From: an uncultured delta proteobacterium
Lineage (GTDB): Bacteria; Desulfobacterota; Binatia; Binatales; Binataceae
Length of the DNA stretch: 64,000 nt
Reading direction: 5' to 3'
Assembly: GCA_963842085.1 (NCBI GenBank)
Contig: CAWJET010000002.1
Span: 992,001 to 1,056,000 of the forward strand
The position numbers were made by a program, and so were the translations under genes. Shown piece by piece: positions 4,577-58,229 of this stretch. The notes beneath the pieces are model-generated. The model was not told the origin of the DNA. It did no database searches and was given only the letters and a program-made list of their open reading frames with translations. Numbering within the stretch: the first letter of the stretch is position 1; the number at the start of each line of letters is the position of its first letter.

Positions 4577-5236
4577 CTAGTCGATCCGAATCAGTTTGTG
4601 CTTGATCGCGTATCGCACTATTGCCGCCGTCGAGCGCAGCTCGAGCTTCCGCTTGAGATTGTCACGATGCGCCTGCGCGGTCTTCACGCTGATGCCCAGT
4701 CGTCGCGCGACCTCCTTGGTAGTCGCGCCCTCGCCGATCAGCTTGAGCACTTCGCGCTCGCGGCGCGTCGGAGTCGCGGCGTGCGAGGTGTTCGGCGGCG
4801 CGCCATTGCGCAGTCGCGCAAGCACGATCGGCGCGATGGTCGGGCTCAGATAGCGCCGCCCCGAATGAACTGCCCGCACCGCGGTCAGCAATTCAGCCGC
4901 CGCATCGGTCTTGACCACGTAGCCCGCGGCGCCCGCATCGCCGAGCGCCTCGAGCACGCATTCTTCGTCCTCGTATTGGCTGAGCATCAGCACCTTGCAT
5001 GCCGGCGCTTCTTTGGCGATTCGACGCGCCGCCGATATTCCGCCGATTCCCGGCATCCCGATGTCCATCACGACCACCTGCGGCTTGAGTTGCGCGGCAA
5101 TCGCGGCGGCCTGCTCGCCATCCGACGCTTCGGCGATCACCTCGCACTCCGCCGCGAGCACCGAGCGCAGTGCCTCGCGCAGGATCCGATGGTCATCGGC
5201 GAGCAGCACGCGAATCCGCTCGCGACTCTCCGTCAT
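4577..5236 (-). CDS. NarL/LuxR family response regulator
   Basis: RVLLADDH, VVMDIGMPG receiver motifs and LuxR HTH (TRREREVL...LGISVKTAQAHR); ATG at 5236 overlaps the kinase stop. Confidence 0.93.
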   Translation of the reverse strand: MTESRERIRVLLADDHRILREALRSVLAAECEVIAEASDGEQAAAIAAQLKPQVVVMDIGMPGIGGISAARRIAKEAPACKVLMLSQYEDEECVLEALGDAGAAGYVVKTDAAAELLTAVRAVHSGRRYLSPTIAPIVLARLRNGAPPNTSHAATPTRREREVLKLIGEGATTKEVARRLGISVKTAQAHRDNLKRKLELRSTAAIVRYAIKHKLIRID

Positions 5237-6945
5237 GCGACCTCCGGAATTTCGGCGATCACGGTCGTGCGACCTGCCCGCGATTCCACGGTCAAGCTCC
5301 CGCCCATCAACTCCAGCCTTTCCCGCACACCAGCCAGGCCGCTGCCCGCGCCGTCGTTGGCGCCGATACCGCAGCCGTCGTCGCTGACCGAGACCCGCGC
5401 GGCCCCGTCGCGGCTTTCGATCGCGATCTGCACGGACTTCGCGCGCGCATGGCGAATGACGTTGGATAGCGCCTCGCGCACGACCTGGAAGCATAGTTGC
5501 TGCAGCGGGCGCGAAATGTTCGCCGCCGCGGCACCGTAAATCAATTTCGCTTTTACCCCCGCGTCATCGAGCCGGGCGAACTCGTGCTCGATTGCCTCGT
5601 CGAGTGACACGCTGCCGATCGTGGCCGGACGAAGTTCACGGGTCTTTTTGCGCAACTCCTCTTCGACCTGCTTGAAGATCGCGCGGGCCGCCTCACCCCG
5701 ACCGTCGAGCGCGATTTTCGCCGCCGCCAACAGTTGCGCCTGATCGTCGTGCAGGTCGCGCGCGATCCGGGCGCGCTCCTCGTCGATCGCCGCAAACATT
5801 CTAAGCGCAAGCTGGCGCACCAGGCCGCCGCGCCGCGACGCCTCCCGCTCCATCACCCAGCTCATTGCCAATGGCGCCAGCCGCTCGACAATCGCCTGCG
5901 CCCGCGCCGCCGATGCGTGCCCGTCGCGCGAGGCGAGCGCAATTGCGCCCGCCCCGAACGGGATACACACGTACGAACCACCAAACACCTTGTCCTCGAA
6001 ATATTGGCGGGCGCGATCGAGCGTTCGGTCTTCGCGCTCGCGCCAGCGGGCAATCACGATCCGGCGCAGAAAACTCTCGGCCAGCGCGCTGCCGGTCTCC
6101 ACCGGGTCGAATTGTTTCAGCTCCGCGGGCGACGACGCGGCCATGGTCAACGCGCTGCCGTCCGCGACCGCCACCATCCATTGGTCGAAGCCGGCGCCGC
6201 CCGCCACGAGTTCGCCGAAACGGCCGAACCGGTTGTTCGGCTGCGCGCACCGCGCCGCCGCAACCGCCTCGTCCAGGCTATGGGTCGCCGCCCGCTCGGT
6301 CGCCAGCTCCTGCTTGGCGCCCTCGGCCTGGCGGCCGCGCTCAGCACCGTGACCGCGCCAGAATTCAAGCGAGACGCGGGCGGCGGCCAGCGCGAGCTCG
6401 CCGAAAACGGCGCGCGCCGTAAGTTCAAGCGATGCCTCAAGTTCGGCGGGGGCGCGATCCGCCCGCGCCACCAGCGCGATTCGCACCGCGCTCGCGCCGT
6501 CGGTGAACGCCGACGCGGCGAACTGGCGCCCGTCGTCCATTTTATCGGCGCGCGCGATTGCGTCGAGCTCTCGCGCGCTCAGCGCAACTTTTTCGATCAA
6601 CCCGCTCGAAGCCGGCACGCCGCGCGCCCGCTTCGTTCCGTCGGCTGCAACCAAGTCACCCAGCCGATGACCGAGCGCTTCGAGAATCGCCTTCAGAAAC
6701 TCGTCCCATCGCGAGTCACCGTGTGGCGCGTACACCACCTCGTCGGCGCTCGTCGCGCTCGATTGAAACGCGATCGCGCATCGCTCGGCCGCAAGCGTCC
6801 CTGCGCCAAGCTCGGCAATGGCGGCGATCCGATCGCTGAAGCATGTGCCACGCGATGTCGGTCGCGGCGCGATAACTGCCAGTCGATTGGGCTGTCTGAG
6901 AGTGGTTCCCAAAATTCCTCCGCCTTCAGGATGACAGAGGAACAC
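5233..6945 (-). CDS. HisKA_3 (NarX-like) sensor histidine kinase; true start probably downstream of 6945
   Basis: RIARDLHD H-box; EALSNVIRHA, DDGCG, GSGL HATPase motifs; the first codons of the ORF overlap a repeat element. Confidence 0.85.
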   Translation of the reverse strand: MFLCHPEGGGILGTTLRQPNRLAVIAPRPTSRGTCFSDRIAAIAELGAGTLAAERCAIAFQSSATSADEVVYAPHGDSRWDEFLKAILEALGHRLGDLVAADGTKRARGVPASSGLIEKVALSARELDAIARADKMDDGRQFAASAFTDGASAVRIALVARADRAPAELEASLELTARAVFGELALAAARVSLEFWRGHGAERGRQAEGAKQELATERAATHSLDEAVAAARCAQPNNRFGRFGELVAGGAGFDQWMVAVADGSALTMAASSPAELKQFDPVETGSALAESFLRRIVIARWREREDRTLDRARQYFEDKVFGGSYVCIPFGAGAIALASRDGHASAARAQAIVERLAPLAMSWVMEREASRRGGLVRQLALRMFAAIDEERARIARDLHDDQAQLLAAAKIALDGRGEAARAIFKQVEEELRKKTRELRPATIGSVSLDEAIEHEFARLDDAGVKAKLIYGAAAANISRPLQQLCFQVVREALSNVIRHARAKSVQIAIESRDGAARVSVSDDGCGIGANDGAGSGLAGVRERLELMGGSLTVESRAGRTTVIAEIPEVA

Positions 6946-12086: not shown

Positions 12087-13741
12087 CCGATTCATTTAAG
12101 ACCAATGCGATCAGGTCCGATGCGCTCGAGCAGTATCGGCGTACGTGTCGGGACTTCAGGTGGGAGACGCCGGAGCATTTCAACTTCGCCGCGGTTATCG
12201 ACAAGTTCGCCGAAGATCCGCGCCGGGTTGCGATCCTTTGCGAGGACAGCGAGGGCAATCGCGCACGGCTGACGTTCGCGGACATCGCCCAGCAGTCGAA
12301 GCGGATCGCGAACGTTCTCGCCGGCCATGGAATCAGGCGCGGCGACGCGGTGCTGCTGGTGCTGCCGCGAATCACGCTCTGGCAGGCCGCCTACATCGGC
12401 GCGCTCAGGCTCGGCGCGATCGTCATCCCGTGCACCTCGATGCTGCGCGAGAAGGACTTGATCTATCGCGCGAATCATTCTGGCGCGCGCGCGATAATCG
12501 CCGGTTTCGAGCAAGCCGCGATGATCGCGGACCTGCGCAAGCAATGCCCCTCGCTCGAGCATTACCTGATCGCCGGCGCCGCCCGCACCGGCTGGGTCAG
12601 CCTGCAGGAATACATGGGTCACTCGTCGCCGGTGTTCAGAACCGCGAACACGAAATCGTCGGAGCCCGCGATTTGCTATTACACTTCCGGCACGACCAGG
12701 GAGCCGAAGGCCGTTCTGCATAGTCACTCCTATACCTACAGTCACCGCTTCACCGGGCTTAACTGGCTGAACGTGAGGCCGGGCGACATCCATTGGACTA
12801 CGTCGGACACCGGCTGGGCCAAGGCCGCGTACGGCGTGCTGTTCGGGCCGTGGATGAACGGGGTGACGACGTTCATGTACAAGGGCCGCTTCGACCCGGA
12901 AAAAGAACTCGGGTTGCTCGGCCGCTACAGAGTTACTACCTTCTGCGCGCCGCCGACTGAGTATCGAATACTAATCAAGGAGAATCTCGCCGATTACTCA
13001 TTCCCCAAGCTGAGACATTGCACTGGAGCGGGCGAGCCGCTGAATCCGGAAGTGATTGAGGTCTGGCGCGAGCGGCTGGGGCTGACGATTCACGACGGCT
13101 ACGGACAAACCGAAACGATCATCCTCGCCGCGAACATGCCCGCGATGCCCGTGAAGCCGGGCTCGATGGGGCTGCCGTTCCCCGGCCATGACGTTCGAGT
13201 GCTCAACGGCGAACTGGCCGAAACAAAGATCGATGAAGTCGGCGAGATCGCAGTGCGAGTGAGTCCCGAGCGCCCGCCGTCGCTGTTTCTGGAGTATTGG
13301 AAAAATGCGGAAGAGACCGCCGGAGTGTTTCGCGGCGACTGGTACCTGACCGGCGACCAGGCGACCCGCGACGCCGACGGCTACCTGTGGTTCGTCGGCC
13401 GCGCCGATGACGTTATCATTTCGGCGGGCTATCGAATCGGGCCGTTCGAAGTGGAGAGCGCCCTGCTCGAGCATCCCGCCGTAATGGAATCCGCAGTGGT
13501 CGCGTCGCCAGACGCTGATCGCGGCTCGATCGTCAAGGCGTTCGTGAAGCTGCGACCCGGCGCCGAGCCGGGCCAGCGGCTCATCACAGAACTGCAGGAG
13601 CACTGCAAGCGCGTGACGGCGCCCTACAAATATCCGCGCGAGATCGAGTTCATCGACGAGTTGCCCAAAACAGTCAGCGGAAAAATCCGCCGCGTCGAGT
13701 TGCGCCAACAAGAAGAATCCCGCAAGGGTAAATCTGTCTGA
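12083..13741 (+). CDS. Short/medium-chain acyl-CoA synthetase (ACSM-like)
   Basis: YTSGTTREPK, GYGQTE, GRADD, LPKTVSGKI; ATG at 12083 overlaps the upstream stop. Confidence 0.92.
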   Translation: MTDSFKTNAIRSDALEQYRRTCRDFRWETPEHFNFAAVIDKFAEDPRRVAILCEDSEGNRARLTFADIAQQSKRIANVLAGHGIRRGDAVLLVLPRITLWQAAYIGALRLGAIVIPCTSMLREKDLIYRANHSGARAIIAGFEQAAMIADLRKQCPSLEHYLIAGAARTGWVSLQEYMGHSSPVFRTANTKSSEPAICYYTSGTTREPKAVLHSHSYTYSHRFTGLNWLNVRPGDIHWTTSDTGWAKAAYGVLFGPWMNGVTTFMYKGRFDPEKELGLLGRYRVTTFCAPPTEYRILIKENLADYSFPKLRHCTGAGEPLNPEVIEVWRERLGLTIHDGYGQTETIILAANMPAMPVKPGSMGLPFPGHDVRVLNGELAETKIDEVGEIAVRVSPERPPSLFLEYWKNAEETAGVFRGDWYLTGDQATRDADGYLWFVGRADDVIISAGYRIGPFEVESALLEHPAVMESAVVASPDADRGSIVKAFVKLRPGAEPGQRLITELQEHCKRVTAPYKYPREIEFIDELPKTVSGKIRRVELRQQEESRKGKSV

Positions 13742-49648: not shown

Positions 49649-49723
49649 GGGCGGTTAGCTCAGTGGTAGAGCATCGGCCTTACAAGCCGGGGGTCGCAGG
49701 TTCGAAACCTGCACCGCCCACCA
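49649..49723 (+). tRNA. tRNA-Val (anticodon TAC)
   Basis: GGGCGGT/ACCGCCC acceptor stem, CT-TAC-AA anticodon loop, GGTTCGAAACC T-arm, encoded CCA. Confidence 0.97.
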
Positions 49724-49771
49724 ATAAAATCAAGCACTTACGCGATTGCGCTAACGGCGTTTCCGGCGTCA

Positions 49772-49789
49772 GTGCCAAATAGGTGCCAA
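49772..49789 (+). promoter_or_regulatory. Putative integrase arm-type sites (left)
   Basis: GTGCCAA x2 at 11-bp spacing; same motif x3 at 58016-58047. Confidence 0.65.
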
Positions 49790-49915
49790 TTTTTTATCAA
49801 AAGCAGGGGCTAAAAGAGCCCTTGGTAGGGGTCGATTTTGTACCCAAGCTCGAGCCCAGATCGGGTGCACGAGGATGCAGTTTCACCGAAAATCAAAAAT
49901 GGAAACGGCTGGGAT

Positions 49916-49942
49916 CTGATCCGTCTGATCCGTCTAATCCCC
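49916..49942 (+). repeat. 9-bp iteron-like array (left end)
   Basis: CTGATCCGT CTGATCCGT CTAATCCCC. Confidence 0.8.
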
Positions 49943-50162
49943 CGCAACCCCCAGGGGCGATGGTGACGGGACGACCTCAAAGAATCGTGCCGGGGGTAGC
50001 CCGTAGACCCCCACCCCCTCTATGCTTTTTCGTCGCGCGCGCGGCGGCACGGCTCACGAATACAGTGGCGTCGACGTGGGAGTCTGCTTGCTTCGAGAAG
50101 GGGCGCCGAATCGAGCTTTTAGCGCTATGCTTCACAATCGCGAGCCGCGGCGCGGCGGGCGG

Positions 50163-50408
50163 ATGGTCGATCTTATGCTGCAACCCGATTTCGATCCCAA
50201 GCCGAAAACTCTCCACATCTATCCGTGCGGCTACCTCTCGAAATGCAAGGCTCGGCGATGCTGGGAGCGCGCGACGCTGATCGCCGAGAAGGTTGACGGC
50301 GGCGGCCGGCACATTCGGCAGATCGAATTGTGCACGAAGCATGGCAACGTCGTTATCGCGCGCGAGCGGGCGCGCGGTCTAGAGATTTCTGATCGGCGGT
50401 TTGAATAG
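50163..50408 (+). CDS. Small Cys/His-containing hypothetical protein
   Basis: C...CKARRC...LCTKH, possibly Zn-binding; C-terminal part of ORF 50022..50408. Confidence 0.55.
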   Translation: MVDLMLQPDFDPKPKTLHIYPCGYLSKCKARRCWERATLIAEKVDGGGRHIRQIELCTKHGNVVIARERARGLEISDRRFE

Positions 50409-50419
50409 GGAACGGGCCA

Positions 50420-50517
50420 GCGAGGGAGGGGTGCCCATTTCGCCAGCCCGAACGCCGACTGGTCAAAAGGGAGGTAAACACACCAGCCAGCGATCCCATC
50501 CCTACTAAATCGGCGCG
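50420..50517 (-). ncRNA. Candidate small RNA with an anti-SD loop
   Basis: 11-bp stem (50453-50463/50482-50492) that pairs fully only on the minus strand via G-U; loop contains ACCUCCCUUU; upstream TTGACA-N16-TATAGA. Confidence 0.4.
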
Positions 50518-50781
50518 CGAGCGTCTATAAATCGGAACGATGCGCTGTCAAAACGATTCGGCCAAAGGCGTTCACGAGCTAGAAATTTTCAACTTACGAC
50601 GGCGCCAGGCCTACCGCGAGCAGACCGGCATTTTCCATTTTGACGGCGAATGTAGGAGATGCTTCGCCTCGTATTGGCAGCACGGACAAGAGATCGTTTC
50701 TGAGCAGTGGAAGTTGCGCCCTGCTACTTGCGATTGCGGCTGCGCTTAAATTAAGAGATTCGCGACTTGAAATTCAGCCAC

Positions 50782-50937
50782 TCAGCACCGAATTGAGACA
50801 CTGCCGGCGGGTGAACTTCCGGCTTGCGCGGCCTTGTTCTTCTCGCGCTGCAGCTTGCGGGCCTGCTTTCGCTCGCGCTTCAGCCGGCGCGCCATTTCGG
50901 CCAGTTCGTGCTGCGATCCGCGCGTTCGCGTGCTCAC
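50782..50937 (-). CDS. Small basic protein (51 aa), not in ORF track
   Basis: GTG overlaps the stop of the TerS-like gene (GTGA); MSTRTRGSQHELAEMARRLKRERKQARKLQREKNKAA... Confidence 0.5.
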   Translation of the reverse strand: MSTRTRGSQHELAEMARRLKRERKQARKLQREKNKAAQAGSSPAGSVSIRC

Positions 50938-51368
50938 GACAACCGCCGCCCGTCGGCTTTCGCCTCGGGCGCGTCGACAACTTCCGCATCGTCTACCGAG
51001 TGGATCAGCTGTTCGAAGACATCCTGGTTGCGCGGTCGTGCCGCTGAAAACGACAACGGCGTGAGCAGCAGTTCTCTTTCGTGTGCGAGCAAAGTCTGTC
51101 CAAGGCGCCGAATTGCGTCTGTAACCCCGCGCGGGTTGCCGAGCTCGTCGATCAGGCCGCGCTCGCGGGCGCTCGCGATCAAACCATCGAACACGACGGA
51201 CAAAGAACAGTACCTCTTGAGCGTCAGTGAAAACTCAGGCTTGTCCAACCAGCCGGCCGATCGTTTGAGAGAGCGCGCGCGCCTGCGGATTCGTTCATCA
51301 CGTCGTTTCGCGACTGCCCTGCGCGACACGGGCGCCGGCGTAGCCGTATCGGTGGGGTCGCCGTTCAT
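50934..51368 (-). CDS. Terminase small subunit-like protein
   Basis: LKRYC...GLIDELGNP...LLAHERELLLTPLS resembles the P27-family TerS pattern NP...ELGLTP.S. Confidence 0.5.
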   Translation of the reverse strand: MNGDPTDTATPAPVSRRAVAKRRDERIRRRARSLKRSAGWLDKPEFSLTLKRYCSLSVVFDGLIASARERGLIDELGNPRGVTDAIRRLGQTLLAHERELLLTPLSFSAARPRNQDVFEQLIHSVDDAEVVDAPEAKADGRRLS

Positions 51369-51595
51369 TCGAGTCTCGCAACTACGTCTTTCAGCTTCGC
51401 GAGCGCCTGGGCGCGGCGCGCGTCTAGTCGCCGCTGTAACTCGAGCTGCTCGACGCGCGGTAGCCGGCCGAACTTTTCGAACAACGCCGCAACAATCCGC
51501 ACATACTCGCTGTCGTCCGCCACGTGCAACGCCGTGGCAAAAGCCCGATCGAGACGATCTACCTCGTTATCGAGACTATCTGCGTTTTGTGCCAT
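51365..51595 (-). CDS. Hypothetical helical protein (76 aa)
   Basis: ATG at 51595 with RBS AGAGAGG; ATGA coupling to the next gene. Confidence 0.6.
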   Translation of the reverse strand: MAQNADSLDNEVDRLDRAFATALHVADDSEYVRIVAALFEKFGRLPRVEQLELQRRLDARRAQALAKLKDVVARLE

Positions 51596-51694
51596 ATAAC
51601 GTTCCTCTCTTTGAATCCGCCGGCGCGGGCGTGATGCCCTTGGGTCGAGGCGGAGAACCGCAACCAGGCACCACAACCCGCAGCCGGCGAAACC

Positions 51695-52162
51695 TTAGGT
51701 AAGCGAGCCGTAGTGCTTCTCGCGCACGACTTCGCCTTTGTCGTTGATGTAACTGATGCCGCTCGGATGAATAACTGCCTTAACCTGGCCAGCCGGCGCC
51801 CGGCCGTAGCCGCCGTGAATTGTCGGCTTGTAGGGGGGGCGTGGGCCCGACGCGGGAATTTCGGCGCAGATTTTCAACATAGCCTGCGCGATCTGGTTGC
51901 CAGCACCTACGCTGACCAACGCGAGCAGCTTTTCCGCGGCGCCATCAAGTAGTTGACGCGCAGCGGGCGCAAAGTGCGGGTTTTCGCTGACGAGCCCGCC
52001 GATCCGTCTCAGACCTTCGCGCAGCGCGCCGAGCGCATCTCGTGCCGCAGCGCGCTCGAGCAGTGTGTCCGCGTATTCCGTGAATAGGTCGAGCGCCGTC
52101 GCCGGAGCGGGTTGTTCGTCGGTTCCGTTGCTTTTCGTCGGTTCATCTCCTGGGGTGTTCAT
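51695..52162 (-). CDS. Hypothetical protein (155 aa)
   Basis: In the satellite operon; RBS GAGAGGG; coupled to the upstream small ORF. Confidence 0.65.
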   Translation of the reverse strand: MNTPGDEPTKSNGTDEQPAPATALDLFTEYADTLLERAAARDALGALREGLRRIGGLVSENPHFAPAARQLLDGAAEKLLALVSVGAGNQIAQAMLKICAEIPASGPRPPYKPTIHGGYGRAPAGQVKAVIHPSGISYINDKGEVVREKHYGSLT

Positions 52163-52338
52163 CGATAATCCCTCTCAATTCTTTTGATCACCGCGCGCAT
52201 TCTGGCGTTCGCTTCACTCTCGCTGAGCTTCGGATCGCGCAGAACTCCTGCGTCCGGCGAGATGGGTGTTTCGTAGCGCCTCAACTTCTCTTTCAGCGCG
52301 GCGTTTTCAGTTCTCAGTGCTTCTATGTCGTCGGCCAT
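52159..52338 (-). CDS. Small coiled-coil protein (59 aa), not in ORF track
   Basis: MADDIEALRTENAALKEKLRRYE...IERDYR*; duplicated RBS AAGGAGACAAGGAGAC; ATGA overlap with the next gene. Confidence 0.7.
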   Translation of the reverse strand: MADDIEALRTENAALKEKLRRYETPISPDAGVLRDPKLSESEANARMRAVIKRIERDYR

Positions 52339-52401
52339 TTTCGTTGTCTCCTTGTCTCCTTGTTTGAATTCAGTTTTTGAGCCTTCCTAGCCATCGCACC
52401 G

Positions 52402-52710
52402 CTAGAACCGCACCTGAGCGCGGCAGGGGCCGGCCTTTTCGATCGTAATGTACTCGCGCGTAACTCCAGTAATTCGATCATCACGGCCGAGTTTTGAAAT
52501 TAGGCCCGACGCGCCCCACAGCCGTGCGCGATCCCAGCCGAAGTTTAACGCGCAACGCTCGACTGCCCCTATTTCAGCGACACTTACGAGGCTTCGCCCA
52601 TACCGGCAAGCCCAGGAAACGATATCCGAGGGTATTTCGAACGATGGGAGGTCTTCAAAAAAGACGCGTGGCATTTTTTTTGCTCCTGTGCGCTGTATCG
52701 CCCTATGCAT
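52402..52710 (-). CDS. Hypothetical protein
   Basis: Abuts the upstream gene within the same operon. Confidence 0.55.
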   Translation of the reverse strand: MHRAIQRTGAKKMPRVFFEDLPSFEIPSDIVSWACRYGRSLVSVAEIGAVERCALNFGWDRARLWGASGLISKLGRDDRITGVTREYITIEKAGPCRAQVRF

Positions 52711-53121
52711 TCAGTTGATCGGGTGAAACTGGATGGAGGTTAGAATAAAGCGGAGGGCCGAGTAACAGACTTTCGAGCCGCAGAGCACTTTATTGCCGCT
52801 GATCCAGTATCGGCTGGCGCCGCATTTGGGGCATGGAGGGAATTGGTGATCCTGTACCGCGAGCCTTGCTACGTCGGCCGCGGGTCGGAAAGTCGCCTCG
52901 ACGATTTTTCCATCAGCGCGCCAGCCGGCGCGGTCACTGTCGGACCGTTCGTCGGCCGGGCTGGCGAGCAGACTTAGCAAAGCGGATTTGTGGGTGCGGA
53001 CTTTCTCGACCAGCGCGACCGTCAACCGGTCTTTGGGGGCAACGTAGATATTACCGTTGGGGCGCCGCTCGATCCGGATGCCCAGCGCGTTTAGTTCATC
53101 GAGCACAGTTTGCGCGGTCAT
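52711..53121 (-). CDS. Primase-associated protein with TubC-N-like domain and Zn ribbon
   Basis: VLDELNALGIRI...HKSALLSLL; CPKCG...C..KVC; ATGA-coupled to the primase. Confidence 0.6.
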   Translation of the reverse strand: MTAQTVLDELNALGIRIERRPNGNIYVAPKDRLTVALVEKVRTHKSALLSLLASPADERSDSDRAGWRADGKIVEATFRPAADVARLAVQDHQFPPCPKCGASRYWISGNKVLCGSKVCYSALRFILTSIQFHPIN

Positions 53122-55622
53122 ACTTCAACTCCTTCGGCAGTTTCCGGTCGCGCTGCCGCGCCGTCGACTTTGACGATGCGCCACGTGCCGGTCTTATGGG
53201 ATTCGAAATCGCCCCGCATCAGGCGCAAGTTGCCGACGATTCGATCGGCGTGGTTTCTGCACCATCCGGCGAGCCGGCGGTTGTCGATTTTCTGCGGGTT
53301 GTTCCGCGCCGCCGCTACATCGAGCAGCGACTGTCGCAAGTTTGATTCGGCAGTTCCTTCCGTTGCCGACTCCGCGCAACCGACCACCTCGCGCAACAAC
53401 AGCATCCGATCAGCAAATAGATCGGCCCAAGCGCGCAAGACGGCTGTCGTCGATTGGCGGTCAGGGTCGAGAAGGGAAATTCTCTCCCGGGTCGCAACAG
53501 GATCAGCGCCGCTCGCCCACACAAGCGCGCTACGAACCCAATCAGACCATTCCTCGAAGCGGCCGTAGGGGCGGAGCCCCTGATCGGGCATCCCGGCGCG
53601 GGAATATGCTTTCAGGATCGTGAGCGCGGCCTGTACGAGGCGGGGCCGTTCTCGCCGAACGTGGGCGCGCAGATCGGCAATGACGAAGTTTCGCTCTTCG
53701 GGCTTTTCGCATCGCGGATCGATCCTGCAAACGATCGCACGGCTGGCCAGGTCGCCGGCAAATACGAGATTGTTGGCCGTGCACAACCACAAAAGATTTG
53801 TCGGAAGTTGTGGGCGTTCGTTTTTTCCCAGTAGGCGATCAGCGAACACAGGTTGCGTCACGATCATTGCGAGCGCGTCACTTCGCATCGCGCGGGTGAT
53901 GTTGTCGATGTTCGCAACCAGGTCGCCCGCCAATAAGATCGAAGTAAGGCGTTTTCGAAGCTCCTCGCTATTGCCCCCAAGCGGCATCGACGCGACAACA
54001 CGGCCCGTTAATATGATCGCGATACAGTCGGCGAGTAGGCTTTTACCGCTTCCCGGCGTGGGTGCGTCCAATCCGATGATCGGTGCGGCCGCCAGCTGCC
54101 GACGCACTAAGCCAGTGAGTATGCCGGACACAATCACGCTGCGATCCGCTGCGCTGACAAATGGAAATTCGGCGATCGGTGCGGTCAGTAGCGCGAGCGC
54201 GCTCTCTGCATCGGCGTGAGTAGCTTGTTCAGGGACGGGAAGCCAGTTCTCGCGCGAATATAGAAACAACCCGCTGGCAAGATCATAGCCCGGCGATTCG
54301 ATCATCCTACCGTCCGGCATGATCGTGGGCGCCTCGATCACTCCGGTAAGAACTGGCAACTTCCAATGTCCCGCCCGGGCAAGATAGCTTGCGGCAACTT
54401 TTGGCGGGCAATCTTCGGAAACAAAATCTCCCCTGCGGTTGCGCCTGTGCCAATTGATCGCGCGCGAGAAGGTGTCTTCAAGCGCGATCGAATCCATTGG
54501 CTTCAGCATTACGGCGCCATTCGGTCGCCGGATTGATTTGCGATCATCCGACGGATCGATTTCGACGACACGCACGACGATCCCGCTCCGTTGGAACAGT
54601 CCCCATCGCCGATGATCGAGAATTATTTTTTCGGCGAGATCGATCATCCAAGGGCGGCGGCCAGCCACAATTTCGATCCTCGGCCGGCCGTCGTTTTTGT
54701 AGGTTTTGTAAGCACGGATGACGATCTTTTTCGCTGCATCGCTTGGAAAGCTCGGAACGCACTTCCCGGCGGCTTCCAGGCACGCTTGAATCGCAACCTT
54801 CCGAGCGGTGTTCGTGGCTCGGAATGAGCAAGCCGCGCGAAAAATCTGATCGTTGCGCGCGCCCTCGGGGACGCCGCTTAAGGCGCGGAGAAGATCGAAC
54901 CCTGTTGGCTTGTCGTTCCCCTCGCCGCCGGTCGTGTGCGGTCGGTCTTCGTTGGTCTTGTCGCGCAGCCGTTCGACCAGCGGCGCCGGGAGCTCTGCAA
55001 TCGGCGTCTCGGTGATCTGGTGGCCGACTTCCCAGACATATTCTCCGCCGGTGAAATGTCGGCTGGGAGGCGCGATCACGTACCCGCCAGCCGATTTCAC
55101 GTCGACGCCGGGGCCGAGCGCGTTGCTGCGCGACGGCACGCGGACACCGGCTGGCAGACGATAATAAACATGAGGGCCGCCGGAGCCGCTGAGTGCCTGC
55201 GCGGTATCATCATTGATGTTCAGTTCTGTCTTGAGCTCCGCCCACGTTGAATCACCGGCGGCGCGCAGGTCAACGTCAATCACCACCACCCCCGACGGCT
55301 CACAGGCGATCGCGATATTCCATTCAGGATGGGACTTCCACCAGCGTGTTATTGAAGCCCGATCGATGGTTGCATCCTTCAGGCCGTGTAGGGTGGCGGG
55401 GTGCTTACCGGGATGCTCGCAGGCCGAATCGCTGCATGTGCAGATGGGCGCACGTTTACCATCTCGCTCGACGTAGAGGATTCCGTGACCGGGGAAAACA
55501 TAGAAGCCGTGCGCCGCGTACCATAGAGCGCAAGTTAGGTGCCTATCGTGCTTTCCCCGCTCCTTCTCCGAGCTACGCCGCTCGCCACGAGGGGGGTGCG
55601 CGGCGGACTCAGTTCCGTTCAT
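53118..55622 (-). CDS. Bifunctional primase-polymerase with PriCT and P-loop helicase domains
   Basis: GKHP, NIAI..VVVIDVD, GGPHVYY, GGYVIAPPSRH; EGARNDQIF (PriCT-1); PGSGKS Walker A. Confidence 0.88.
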   Translation of the reverse strand: MNGTESAAHPPRGERRSSEKERGKHDRHLTCALWYAAHGFYVFPGHGILYVERDGKRAPICTCSDSACEHPGKHPATLHGLKDATIDRASITRWWKSHPEWNIAIACEPSGVVVIDVDLRAAGDSTWAELKTELNINDDTAQALSGSGGPHVYYRLPAGVRVPSRSNALGPGVDVKSAGGYVIAPPSRHFTGGEYVWEVGHQITETPIAELPAPLVERLRDKTNEDRPHTTGGEGNDKPTGFDLLRALSGVPEGARNDQIFRAACSFRATNTARKVAIQACLEAAGKCVPSFPSDAAKKIVIRAYKTYKNDGRPRIEIVAGRRPWMIDLAEKIILDHRRWGLFQRSGIVVRVVEIDPSDDRKSIRRPNGAVMLKPMDSIALEDTFSRAINWHRRNRRGDFVSEDCPPKVAASYLARAGHWKLPVLTGVIEAPTIMPDGRMIESPGYDLASGLFLYSRENWLPVPEQATHADAESALALLTAPIAEFPFVSAADRSVIVSGILTGLVRRQLAAAPIIGLDAPTPGSGKSLLADCIAIILTGRVVASMPLGGNSEELRKRLTSILLAGDLVANIDNITRAMRSDALAMIVTQPVFADRLLGKNERPQLPTNLLWLCTANNLVFAGDLASRAIVCRIDPRCEKPEERNFVIADLRAHVRRERPRLVQAALTILKAYSRAGMPDQGLRPYGRFEEWSDWVRSALVWASGADPVATRERISLLDPDRQSTTAVLRAWADLFADRMLLLREVVGCAESATEGTAESNLRQSLLDVAAARNNPQKIDNRRLAGWCRNHADRIVGNLRLMRGDFESHKTGTWRIVKVDGAAARPETAEGVEV

Positions 55623-55819
55623 CGCTCGCCGCCGCCCGCCAGATATTTTTCAAGCTCCGACGCCGAAATGAGAACGCGCCGGCCAGCGCGGATGATCGGA
55701 AGATGCCCGCGGTTGATCTCGAGTCTGACGAAGCCTTCAGAAACGCCGAGCGAATCCGCGATCTCGGCGACGCCGAACGCGCGCCGCGGCAGTCCCCCAT
55801 TCAAGTTTTTCTTCACCAT
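55619..55819 (-). CDS. Excisionase-like HTH protein
   Basis: FGVAEIADSLGVS...GRRVLISASELEKYL; coupled to the primase. Confidence 0.8.
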   Translation of the reverse strand: MVKKNLNGGLPRRAFGVAEIADSLGVSEGFVRLEINRGHLPIIRAGRRVLISASELEKYLAGGGER

Positions 55820-55872
55820 ATGTGACTAGTTTACTCGCAGTTGTGTCTGGTGCAACGTCGTGATAGGAATAA

Positions 55873-56760
55873 GTGTTGAAACGAAATGCAGCGATGTTTG
55901 AGGAGAAAGCGTTGCGCAAAAAACGACAGTCTAAAGCAAGAGCGTCCGGCCGCGGCCGTCCCGTTGAAGGCTTGATCACGTCCCTAGACCAGGGGACGCG
56001 CGAGGCCGACGCCGCTTATCGCCGTGTCGGGGGCACGCCGGCGGCACGCCTCACATGGCTCCTGGCTTTCGGGCCGTTGCGTAAGCGCAGCCATGCGAAG
56101 GAGAGCGAGCGGCGGCGGCGGGCGACCTCGCTTGAGCTCTATGCGTTCTGCATCGGTCAGCGCGGCAGCATGAGGCGCAGCCGCGCCACGACTCTAGCCG
56201 GCGGAGAATTCGAGGAACTCGCCTCGAAGATTACCCAGGCGCTGAGGGACTTGGCCGCTGGCCGCCCTTGGGAGCTCAAAGCGGCGGACACTCCCGACTT
56301 GACGCGCCGGCTGTTGCTTCGCGGCGACATTTCCCGCATCGGCTTAACGCTCCCGGTGTTGCTTCGCGCCGGGATTTCCCGCGAGGATGCGACCGGGCTA
56401 AGTCGGGGCGCAACTTCGATCTACGACGGCCCCCTGCCGCAAATGTTCCTATGGTCGGTTGCTGATTTCATCGCGGTTGACGGTTCCCTGCTGGCAACTT
56501 GCGCGTACAAGAAATGCGGCAAGCTCATGGTGCACATAGGTGATCGGCGCCCGCGCGAATACTGCTCAAAGCGGTGTTCGCTGCTTGAACGCACACGACG
56601 CTACCGATCGACACATTCAAAAGAACAGCTATCCGCAGTTCGTCATGAACTATATCGCCGTGCAGTTGAGAGAGAGCATGGCCGCACCGTCGCCAAGCGC
56701 GTGAGGCGCCGCTTGCACGAACAAAATAGCAGTCCGGTCATTTTTGAATTGGAGGAATGA
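55873..56760 (+). CDS. Putative regulator with CGNR-like zinc finger
   Basis: CAYKKCGK...REYCSKRC followed by a basic helix; divergent from xis and coupled to the integrase. Confidence 0.6.
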   Translation: MLKRNAAMFEEKALRKKRQSKARASGRGRPVEGLITSLDQGTREADAAYRRVGGTPAARLTWLLAFGPLRKRSHAKESERRRRATSLELYAFCIGQRGSMRRSRATTLAGGEFEELASKITQALRDLAAGRPWELKAADTPDLTRRLLLRGDISRIGLTLPVLLRAGISREDATGLSRGATSIYDGPLPQMFLWSVADFIAVDGSLLATCAYKKCGKLMVHIGDRRPREYCSKRCSLLERTRRYRSTHSKEQLSAVRHELYRRAVEREHGRTVAKRVRRRLHEQNSSPVIFELEE

Positions 56761-57812
56761 TCATGAGCCGAGTTTTTCAACGTAGCGGGTCTGGGTCGTG
56801 GTGGATTGATTTCTCCGACGCGCAGGGAATCCGCCATCGGCGCAAGATCGGGCCTTCAAAGCGTGTCGCCAAGGAAGTGCTCGACGGTATTTTGGGAAGC
56901 GTCGCCCGCTGTCAGCACCTCGGGATCGTCGCGGAATCAGCCGTCTCGTTTAATGACTTCGCCGAACTCTGGAAACAACGCGTCACCCCGACACTCCGCC
57001 CTCACACACAAACACGATGGTTCGGCATCATTGAAAATCACCTAAAGCCGCTCTTCGTGGGCGCCCTGCGCTCGATTACCAGTAGCGCAGTGGAAGGCTA
57101 CGCGGCTCGCCGTCTGGAAGCCGGGGCCAACCCGCAAACTGTGAATCGCGAGCTCAGCGTGCTGCGACACATGATCAAACGAGCGGTTCGATGGGAGTAC
57201 TTGACCCGTGATCCGGTCGGTACGTGGCCGTTTTCGAAAGAGACTAGCTTCGGCCGCGCGCGCTTCCTCACGGAAGAGGAAATCCCGCGCCTACTCGCCG
57301 CTTGCGAAGATTCGCGCTCGCCCTACCTCAAGGCGTTTGTAATCGTCGCGCTCAATAGCGGGATGCGCAGGGGCGAAATTTTGAGCCTCACCCGAAAATC
57401 GATCGACTGGCAAAATTCGAGCGCAACGCTCGAATTGACCAAAAACGGCGACACCCGGCACGTCCCGTTGAATAGCGCCGCCGTCGACGCGCTACGCTCG
57501 CTGCCAGCCCGCCTCGATGGCGGCCGCCTGTTCCCATTCAAGGATGACCATAGTGTGAGTCGTGCCTTCCGCCGTGCCGTAGAACGCGCAAACATCGAGG
57601 ACTTCCGCCTTCACGATCTCCGGCATACCTTCGCGAGCTACCATGCGATGGCCGGCGTTCAGGGCCGTGGCTTGCAATCGCTGCTCGGACACCGCGACGC
57701 CCGCATGACGATGCGCTACTCGCACCTGTCCGACGGCTACCTGCGCGCGGCCGTCGATAGCGTCGTGCTCGGAGCCGCCGCACCCGCCGAGCGGCCCGCC
57801 AAAGCGAAGTAA
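56757..57812 (+). CDS. int: Tyrosine recombinase (integrase)
   Basis: GMRRGE, TKNG, HDLRH, LLGH, MRYSH catalytic residues. Confidence 0.95.
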   Translation: MIMSRVFQRSGSGSWWIDFSDAQGIRHRRKIGPSKRVAKEVLDGILGSVARCQHLGIVAESAVSFNDFAELWKQRVTPTLRPHTQTRWFGIIENHLKPLFVGALRSITSSAVEGYAARRLEAGANPQTVNRELSVLRHMIKRAVRWEYLTRDPVGTWPFSKETSFGRARFLTEEEIPRLLAACEDSRSPYLKAFVIVALNSGMRRGEILSLTRKSIDWQNSSATLELTKNGDTRHVPLNSAAVDALRSLPARLDGGRLFPFKDDHSVSRAFRRAVERANIEDFRLHDLRHTFASYHAMAGVQGRGLQSLLGHRDARMTMRYSHLSDGYLRAAVDSVVLGAAAPAERPAKAK

Positions 57813-57850
57813 CACCGCGCCGCCAGCTCGGTCGCCCAAGACCATAAAAG

Positions 57851-57981
57851 ACGGATCAGACGGATCAGACGGATCAGTTTCCCGCTCTAAACATTTTCAG
57901 TTTTCTGGGATCACTACACACACCTTCTACTCACCTCGAATTTTTACAAACATGATCCTTCCCGTGATCCGTGTGATCCCC
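57851..57981. repeat. Putative replication origin: convergent iteron arrays around an AT-richer spacer
   Basis: ACGGATCAG x3 (57851-57877); oppositely oriented TGATCC x3 (57953-57981). Confidence 0.65.
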
Positions 57982-58015: not shown

Positions 58016-58047
58016 TGGTGCCAAACTGGTGCCAACTTTGGTGCCAA
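58016..58047 (+). promoter_or_regulatory. Putative integrase arm-type sites (right)
   Basis: TGGTGCCAA x3 at 58016, 58027, 58039. Confidence 0.65.
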
Positions 58048-58179
58048 AATAGCGCCACAATAGGGTCGCACTCAGTGATACTCGATAGCATTAGACGCGT
58101 GAGAAAACCCTTGCGGCCGTGTGGGATTCTGGCGATTAACCGCGGCATTGCTGAGTGATCCAAACCCCTACTTTTCGTT

Positions 58180-58229
58180 CTTACAAGCCGGGGGTCGCAG
58201 GTTCGAAACCTGCACCGCCCACCAATAAA
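58180..58229 (+). repeat. attR: duplicated 3' portion of tRNA-Val
   Basis: Identical to 49679-49728, starting at the anticodon loop. Confidence 0.95.

Follow-up and report, generated by a model that had tools for sequence, protein, structure and literature searches.

The window analyzed here, that is, the whole stretch of 64,000 nucleotides, contains an element of 8.5 kb that is integrated in a tRNA-Val gene and that carries arrays of the 9-mer CTGATCCGT at both of its ends in the form of a 58-nt inverted repeat. The features on which the analysis bears are as follows, with positions counted along the window.

49649..49723, + strand: tRNA-Val (TAC), the integration target (ARAGORN; Rfam tRNA, 74.5 bits)
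49679..49728, no strand: attL core, a 50-bp block identical to 58180-58229 and belonging to the 3' part of tRNA-Val-TAC (direct repeat D1)
49772..49789, + strand: B sites, GTGCCAA x2 repeated every 11 bp at a distance of 43 bp from the core; proposed as arm-type sites (P' arm) of the integrase
49883..49915, + strand: A-tract box of the left module, starting CCGAAAATCAAAAATGG, in an arm of inverted repeat I1; alignable with the box of each of 13 other modules
49916..49942, + strand: array A2, two exact copies of CTGATCCGT plus the degenerate CTAATCCCC, 187 bp from the core; proposed Rep iterons
50163..50408, + strand: small conserved gene encoding 81 aa, with Cys-rich relatives of about 77 aa and no Pfam family
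53118..55622, - strand: Rep, Prim-Pol primase and helicase with a predicted C-terminal winged-helix-like domain (Pfam Prim-Pol, E = 1e-41)
55619..55819, - strand: HTH_17 protein, 66 aa, possible excisionase or regulator (Pfam HTH_17, E = 1.4e-9)
55873..56760, + strand: 295-aa ORF, its end overlapping the start of int; same position in relatives
56757..57812, + strand: tyrosine integrase (Int) of 351 aa whose N-terminal domain, about 60 residues long, is conserved (Pfam Phage_integrase, E = 2.5e-32)
57851..57877, - strand: array A1, CTGATCCGT x3 on the minus strand (three exact ACGGATCAG); proposed Rep iterons
57878..57952, no strand: spacer of 75 bp with 39% GC (element mean 60%); candidate melting region
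57953..57981, + strand: array A3, degenerate, without a box, inverted with respect to A1, 198 bp from the core (repeats D2 and D4)
58018..58058, + strand: B sites, GTGCCAA x3 plus GCGCCAC, repeated every 11-12 bp; proposed as arm-type sites (P arm) of the integrase
58180..58229, no strand: attR core, a partial tRNA-Val copy identical to 49679-49728

Residues 313-819 of Rep are 45-53% identical to the helicases of other elements, and the comparison of the tails showed that the Rep of the window ends without the ori-bearing 3' tail of its relatives. The AF2 model of its C-terminus (residues 690-834, mean pLDDT 76.5) contains helices and a beta hairpin; the best matches given by VIA-align were winged-helix domains with Z values of 5-6.5, which is the background level for such searches, and Foldseek yielded no significant match to the model. 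Homologues of the HTH_17 protein were identified in 10/14 integrase relatives, and the 295-aa ORF is fast-evolving, with about 25% identity to that of one related element (L054). The small conserved gene has 159 database relatives, the best 120 of these 159 being 61-86% identical to it, and its family is multi-copy in this genus (7 matches in the element's own genome and 22 in another, G026). We rejected its product as a binder of the arrays on the grounds that the gene is multi-copy and that an array lay between gene and tRNA in one of 29 further loci (L235). In the contigs of four soil runs the element was recovered from two studies and neither a circle joint nor an empty site was found; these contigs break at the att repeats, and the depth of the element is not above that of its flanks, which, being taken from contigs, is uninformative on excision or replication.

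Two families of repeats around the attachment site

The exact 9-mer occurs six times in the window against an expectation of 0.64, a number reached in none of 100 shuffles, and five of these six copies fall in A1 and A2. Because allowing one mismatch removes any enrichment in the window (16 found vs 16.9 expected), the signal resides in the clustering of exact copies. The first-pass annotation, which was made from the sequence of this DNA, had described the arrays at 49916-49942 and 57851-57877 as reverse complements of each other with a similarity extending over about 55 bp, and both observations hold, with the qualification that the third unit on the left is degenerate: the inverted repeat I1 covers 58 nt (49883-49940 vs 57853-57910) with 76% complementarity, and its ungapped score of 23 is above all the values of 200 shuffles (mean of 8.6, maximum of 12.5). 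The third array that had been annotated, at 57953-57981, is real but degenerate, being composed of the units ATGATCCTT, GTGATCCGT and GTGATCCCC, and its 3' part matches the 3' part of A2 at 90% over 20 nt (repeat D4). The spacer separating A1 from A3 includes the box of A1 (57878-57910) and a CACACACA tract. A1 and A2 are opposed in orientation across attP, and the outer arrays, which had been estimated to lie some 8 kb apart when integrated and close together on the circle, are separated by 7.9 kb in the first case vs 539 bp across attP in the second. We also found no array after the primase-helicase gene of this element, as had been noted before, and rep overlaps the next gene.

A scan that knows the sigma-70 consensus only found no promoter-like sites adjoining the arrays, and the scan for terminators gave nothing usable. 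Across 165 genomes of the order the 18-mer is present in the window's own genome only, and an additional match in that genome (L004, two copies, without the context) looks like chance. Matches to the 18-mer in metagenomes were considered as possible relatives and rejected, as 0/80 loci examined had a homologue of any protein of the element; these matches are unrelated repeats and are therefore uninformative.

A second repeat, GGTGCCAA, which is absent from the first-pass annotation, lies on both arms nearer to the core than the 9-mers. Clusters of GTGCCA are present in 14/14 integrase relatives, whose targets differ (Val-TAC, Glu-TTC and Glu-CTC), and they adjoin the tRNA in 13/13 relatives whose locus holds one, a GTGCCAA pair being located 45-65 bp past the tRNA 3' end in each of these 13; the GTGCCAA triple is shared by the elements L044, L046 and L054. 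It is well established that heterobivalent tyrosine integrases such as lambda Int have arm-type (P/P') sites, and we read GGTGCCAA as the probable arm-type site of this integrase from its distribution. The resemblance to lambda Int is that both arms contain GGTGCCAA, with an 11-12 bp period and at distances from the core of about 40 and 130 bp (43 bp on the left; 132 bp to the end of the last exact copy on the right), and that the putative arm sites are conserved along with the integrase family whatever the core. The difference is that all GGTGCCAA copies, on either side of the core, share one orientation; the comparison concerns GGTGCCAA and not the 9-mers.

The best solved relative of the integrase is the HP1 integrase (E = 1.9e-18). 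The N-terminal 68 residues of Int, a candidate arm-binding domain, have 75% column identity across 11 sequences, and the model of this region (residues 1-68, pLDDT 77, with no significant Foldseek match) presents strands at 5-8, 15-20 and 26-32 and a helix at 35-55, three strands and a helix, which is the topology of the arm-binding fold of lambda and Tn916. Since this domain is conserved while the 9-mers vary, we rejected it as their reader; binding of Int to the 9-mers is also unlikely because it is GGTGCCAA, and not the 9-mer, that goes with the integrase family.

Homologous modules in related elements

In six of the 11 loci with helicase homologues, the rep 3' end bears three or four 9-mers that follow each other every 9 bp. 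There the module consists of an A-tract box followed by these 9-mers and is found in inverted pairs, the inverted partner array having been flagged by the scan in two of the six loci and recognized by eye in three more. Three tail-less helicase homologues with extended loci are accompanied by an integrase of a second family (25-31% identical), and in all three the arrays are located beside int and att; in G154, which has this second integrase family, box-bearing modules flank attP at a tRNA-Leu, inside the arm-type repeat of this second family, CCGCACAA. L211, with a second helicase type, presents a palindrome of box and 9-mers directly after rep, and L044 has an additional array at the rep 3' end. 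Fourteen modules align with one another; their 9-mers share a TCaCC-like core, and the 9-mer sequence differs from element to element. The earlier reading of the arrays as iterons is supported by this comparison, with the same module being found at or after the rep 3' end of helicase homologues and the Rep of the window being devoid of that tail.

Homologous elements had been suggested as the place to look for the layout of the window, and in the four elements that are arranged alike (the window, L044, L046 and L054) each one carries its own repeat on both sides of attP, inverted. In L044 and L054 the int-side array nearest the core is down to one copy. No arrays were found in the DNA examined from four relatives whose int adjoins the tRNA, and L047 shows at most a weak match with an 8-bp period after int. 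The attP-flanking layout is common to three replicase types, namely this helicase, the second helicase type and a DnaB-like protein (L054), and the elements of all three types have int, the ORF and the HTH_17 module in common. We found no relatives with an identical 9-mer, and co-variation with Rep therefore rests on layout and module homology rather than on matched pairs.

A proposed origin interleaved with attP and its alternatives

Taking the comparisons together, we propose, with a probability of roughly 0.7, that attP and the element's own replication origin, including 9-mer iterons bound by Rep, share some 0.65 kb of the excised circle in an interleaved fashion. The most likely identity of the 9-mers is that of Rep iterons, and we infer binding of Rep to them and of Int to GGTGCCAA, with the arrays functioning as an origin. 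The first of the two interleaved systems would be the attP of a heterobivalent tyrosine integrase, its 50-bp core corresponding to the tRNA-Val 3' end and its arm-type sites to GGTGCCAA, present in three or four copies towards int and in two on the opposite side. The second would be the origin, built from modules of an A-tract box and three 9-bp iterons (CTGATCCGT) to which the C-terminal domain of the Prim-Pol/helicase Rep would bind, and it would have been relocated with respect to relatives, in which it appears to sit in or just after the rep 3' end. The box-bearing A1 and the box-less, inverted A3 would thus serve it between int and attP, and the box-bearing A2 across attP, an arrangement that integration would break up, the int end retaining A1 and A3 and the tRNA end A2.

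The first-pass annotation had gone further in proposing a split origin that is completed by excision and hence prevented from replicating in situ. This claim stands in part: attP is indeed flanked by the two box-bearing modules, which are in the canonical orientation, yet the int end by itself keeps inverted arrays around a spacer with 39% GC, and A1 and A3 around this AT-rich spacer might fire in situ. That attP is nested in the origin, the box-bearing modules working only when joined across attP so that integration means off and excision means on, is an idea we hold tentatively, as possible rather than probable. The integrase complex on the intervening arm sites would in that case perhaps fold the modules together, and the order 'excise first, then replicate' would be enforced without a dedicated regulator. 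The arrangement survives the change of integrase family, of arm sites and of tRNA target, which argues for selection.

It may be instead that the arrays are iterons but that A2 is a decaying duplicate without a role, the origin being constituted by A1, the spacer and A3 at the int end. The fit of A1 and A3 with their 39% GC spacer to the described layout of a complete origin and the degenerate third unit of A2 speak for this explanation, which we nevertheless judge possible rather than probable: the repeat across attP is kept, changing in step with that of the other side, in 4/4 like-arranged elements and in G154, the box is carried by A2 and not by A3, and it is the int-side array nearest the core that has been reduced to a single copy in L044 and L054.

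Because the attP-flanking layout extends across three replicase types with a common int module, a protein of that module could be the binder. The HTH_17 protein, as a directionality factor of the AlpA/Xis type or a regulator, could then dock on the arrays, which would be unrelated to replication; bound head to tail in tandem on both arms, it would shape an excisive or integrative complex. Proteins of the Xis/Cox type typically have short tandem repeats as their sites, the HTH_17 gene adjoins int here and has its homologues in the 10/14 relatives mentioned above, and the arrays flank attP. The putative recognition helix and wing are, however, almost identical among the window, L046, L044 and L054 (S.GF[VL]RLE..RG.L...GRR), whereas the repeats differ at most positions, and eight relatives with int beside the tRNA mostly have HTH_17 homologues and yet no att arrays bar the weak match of L047. 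The same modules are, moreover, found inside or after rep genes, and they flank attP where tblastn finds no homologue of this HTH_17 protein, all of which makes the explanation improbable. Most improbable of all is a role of the arrays as operators in the control of outward or antisense transcription at the ends, the regulator being a fast-evolving one from the int module, such as the product of the 295-aa ORF (whose position is kept in relatives while its sequence diverges fast), for even though the small conserved gene starts about 220 bp downstream of A2 and A1 lies just after int, no promoter-like site was seen beside the arrays in the sigma-70 scan, the second integrase family has the same modules but no homologue of this ORF was found there, and the arrays in rep tails are left unexplained.

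Known systems and significance

In phage P4, ori and crr are two separated sets of repeats bound by the alpha protein, and both are needed in cis. The proposed arrangement of the window resembles that of P4 in that putative initiator-binding repeats lie at separated places in a small integrative replicon with a primase-helicase; it differs in that the Rep of the window has a Prim-Pol N-terminus and in that the P4 sites, as generally known, are not described as flanking attP. The alpha protein and its ori site are named in passing in excerpts of one published account (PMC6092414). In the excerpts of that account and of another, the SaPI/PICI origin consists of two opposed iteron sets around an AT-rich region, is positioned immediately 3' of rep and contains penta- or hexamer repeats that are specific to the element, the initiator (Rep or Pri-Rep) being a self-loading helicase with a winged-helix domain at its C-terminus (PMC9371898, PMC6092414). 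With respect to these excerpts, the window element is similar in having opposed sets of short repeats that flank an AT-rich stretch (A1 and A3), an element-specific repeat sequence and, as putative initiator, a primase-helicase fusion whose C-terminal domain may likewise be of the winged-helix type, a likeness from which we claim no homology to the SaPI Reps. It is different in that the proposed origin would be situated between int and attP and across attP, and not directly 3' of rep, and in that its repeats are 9-mers in strict 9-bp tandem vs penta- or hexamers. A proposed origin directly 3' of the initiator gene, absent in the window element, is present in 6/11 helicase-homologue loci. In the literature searched, at the level of titles and the beginnings of abstracts, we found no description of an origin nested around attP.

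For phage satellites, related islands and other small integrative replicons, it is essential that the origin does not fire as long as they reside in the chromosome. Of two further articles, one proposes that an active initiator acting with a chromosomal origin is harmful or lethal to the host (PMC7826253), and the other describes phages that replicate in situ as drivers of lateral transduction (PMC8575938). The physical interleaving of proposed origin modules with integrase sites extends, in this uncultured soil lineage, to two integrase families. If the far module were needed, this would amount to a purely architectural switch coupling recombination to replication. Even if it were not, the comparison would indicate that the position of the origin shifts within this group between the rep tail and attP, that iterons can be embedded in frame in rep, and that arm sites and iterons may be distinguished by the protein family that they track.

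The integrated element and its genes

The gene for tRNA-Val(TAC), at 49649-49723, holds an integrated element of 8.5 kb whose limits are given by a 50-bp block, 49679-49728, that is repeated exactly at 58180-58229. The element carries the following genes:

50163-50408, + strand: small conserved gene (81 aa)
between this gene and rep, leftward: block of small ORFs
53118-55622, - strand: Prim-Pol/helicase fusion, Rep (834 aa)
55619-55819, - strand: HTH_17 protein, a possible excisionase or regulator (66 aa)
55873-56760, + strand: ORF of 295 aa, its 3' end overlapping the start of int
56757-57812, + strand: tyrosine integrase, int (351 aa)

No capsid, terminase or helper-related genes were found in the element. 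The 295-aa ORF matched no Pfam family above threshold, and its position is occupied in relatives by a fast-diverging ORF of 199-361 aa. The small conserved protein is Cys-rich, measures about 77 aa in relatives and belongs to no known family; the best 120 of its 159 database relatives are 61-86% identical to it, and its gene, often adjoining integrase fragments or tRNAs, is multi-copy in the genus (7 matches in its own genome, 22 in G026, another genome of the order). In the soil runs, where contigs only were available, neither circles nor empty sites were seen. Loose ends occur at 49725 and 58226 in runs X2 and X3, and contigs pass from the tRNA-Val end into other sequence, identical in two runs, so that in other strains this site is occupied by something else. 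The depth of the element was lower than that of its flanks in three soil runs.

Two families of repeats around attP

The first-pass annotation had described 9-mer arrays at both ends of the element and read them as iterons of a split origin, and its description of the arrays was borne out. The left array, A2, consists of two exact copies of CTGATCCGT and a degenerate third at 49916-49942, and the right one, A1, of three exact copies on the opposite strand at 57851-57877, with six exact copies found in the window against 0.64 expected. The similarity, given as about 55 bp, extends to 58 nt at 76% (score of 23; the highest among 200 shuffles was 12.5). The third array, A3 (57953-57981), is present but degenerate, and is identical at 18 of 20 positions to the 3' part of A2. 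On the excised circle the outer arrays would indeed come together, 539 bp apart, and nothing array-like lies 3' of the window's rep. A short tandem of TTGTCTCC, in two to three copies at 52339-52366 between two small leftward ORFs, is unrelated to the 9-mers.

Overlooked at that stage was a second repeat, GTGCCAA, with a period of 11-12 bp. Two copies stand on the tRNA side, 43 bp from the core, and three plus a degenerate fourth on the int side, with 132 bp between the last exact copy and the core; all share one orientation. For comparison we took 14 loci that encode a related integrase (identity of 53-70% in the best segment). GTGCCA clusters were present in all 14, with a pair 45-65 bp past the tRNA 3' end in each of the 13 loci that contain a tRNA, these being variously tRNA-Val-TAC, tRNA-Glu-TTC and tRNA-Glu-CTC. 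Because GTGCCAA tracks the integrase family rather than the core, we read it as a putative arm-type site of the integrase. The N-terminal 68 residues of the integrase show 75% mean column identity (11 sequences) and are modelled as three strands and a helix, a model for which Foldseek gave no significant match.

The 9-mers go with the replication module. Of the 14 loci, L051, L055 and L057 could not be classed by layout. The window's own 9-mer, CTGATCCGT, was not found in any relative. Four elements (the window's, L044, L046 and L054) have int far from an intact tRNA, and each of the four bears its own element-specific repeat, inverted, on both sides of attP: CGYCTCCAN in L044, CTGTCACYT in L046 (with two inverted repeats, one of 51 nt at 82% and one of 54 nt at 81%) and CGAAGGGTGCAA in L054. 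Int adjoins the tRNA in eight others (L045, L047, L048, L049, L050, L052, L053 and L056); no arrays were found at att there, save a weak match of 8-bp period after int in L047, and in L048 and L052 inverted 9-mer arrays adjoin the helicase gene instead. L054, at the same tRNA-Val site, contains a large-terminase gene (Terminase_6N/6C, 4760-6145) and a DnaB-like helicase, and is a case of cargo and replicase swapped on a constant int/attP module. In L046 the tRNA-Glu 3' end occurs a third time, at 13669 and 2.2 kb past attR, which suggests a tandem or remnant element.

Arrays in rep tails and the probable reader of the 9-mers

The Reps are mosaic, with an N-terminus of Prim-Pol or DUF3854 and a C-terminal helicase of type X (found in the window and in L052, which share 45% identity over some 500 residues) or type Y (L044, L046 and L047), and all four combinations occur among these five. 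A search with the window's Rep against 165 genomes of the order yielded 11 loci with an X-type helicase. In six of the 11 the 3' end of rep, within the C-terminal tail of the ORF, carries three or four 9-mers repeated every 9 bp (GTGAGTTAT, GGTGGGTTT or GTGAATKTG). A partner array in inverted orientation, some 100 bp farther on, was picked up by scan in two of the six and by eye in three more; the next gene is homologous to the window's 136-aa ORF. In-frame copies were noted in L186 (2983-3151), L052 (6377-6545), L179, L180, L181, L184 and L185, the protein tail reading ...WRVSYVSYVSCVSS...NNSPNSPDSH...; as 9 bp equal three codons, putative origin and low-complexity protein tail use the same DNA. 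Among type Y loci, arrays directly follow the rep stop in two of five looked at; L211 has a palindrome of box (the A-tract stretch adjoining an array) and three 9-mers after rep and a third array within it, and L044 has one more array at the 3' end of its own rep.

The window's Rep ends soon after a conserved W-R-I-V motif, without an array-bearing tail, its C-terminus being modelled as helices and a beta hairpin with weak best matches to winged-helix domains (Z 5-6.5). The three other tail-less X-type homologues come from elements with integrases just 25-31% identical to the window's, and each element carries TGGTGAGTT-type arrays next to the 3' end of int. In G154 (L231, L233) attP at tRNA-Leu is flanked by box-bearing modules placed outside the 11-bp-period repeat of its own integrase family, CCGCACAA. 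A partial tRNA in G117 has both arrays on the same side. The third is a second element of the window's own genome (L230, G000:C2:1162000-1181000, outside the window), with a helicase of the window's type (45% identity), an unrelated integrase and GGTGAYNGT arrays some 70 bp away from the 3' end of int; a far-end array and a tRNA copy were looked for there and only the int-side array was found.

Fourteen modules from rep tails and attP align as an A-tract box, about 15 nt and three 9-mers with a common TCaCC-like core, many with a GTGTG tract upstream. That the HTH_17 protein reads the 9-mers is unlikely, since the putative recognition helix and wing of this protein hardly change between elements with differing 9-mers, and modules occur where no HTH_17 homologue was detected. 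The 9-mers are most likely iterons of Rep, and the modules putative origin halves of the SaPI/PICI kind.

Is the origin divided by integration?

The earlier claim of a split origin is partly supported: box-bearing modules flank attP, but the int end alone resembles a complete origin and might fire in situ. We give the split-origin switch a probability of about one in three. Arguing for it, A1 and A2 oppose each other across attP with their boxes inside, the orientation seen in the rep-tail origin of G071, another genome of the order. The far module is moreover kept, changing in step, in all four elements of the window's layout and in G154, and the core-proximal int-side array is reduced to one copy in L044 and L054. 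Arguing against it, the int end comprises A1 and the inverted A3 with a 75-bp spacer of 39% GC between them, which fits the published description of a complete origin, and L211 has arrays some 470 bp apart within one unsplit origin.

Origins of SaPIs and PICIs are described as an AT-rich region flanked by iterons in two opposed sets, usually just 3' of rep (PMC9371898, PMC6092414). The element shares the opposed repeat sets and the AT-rich stretch between them, but has them around attP rather than just 3' of rep. Its origin has probably left the rep tail and would now lie around attP.
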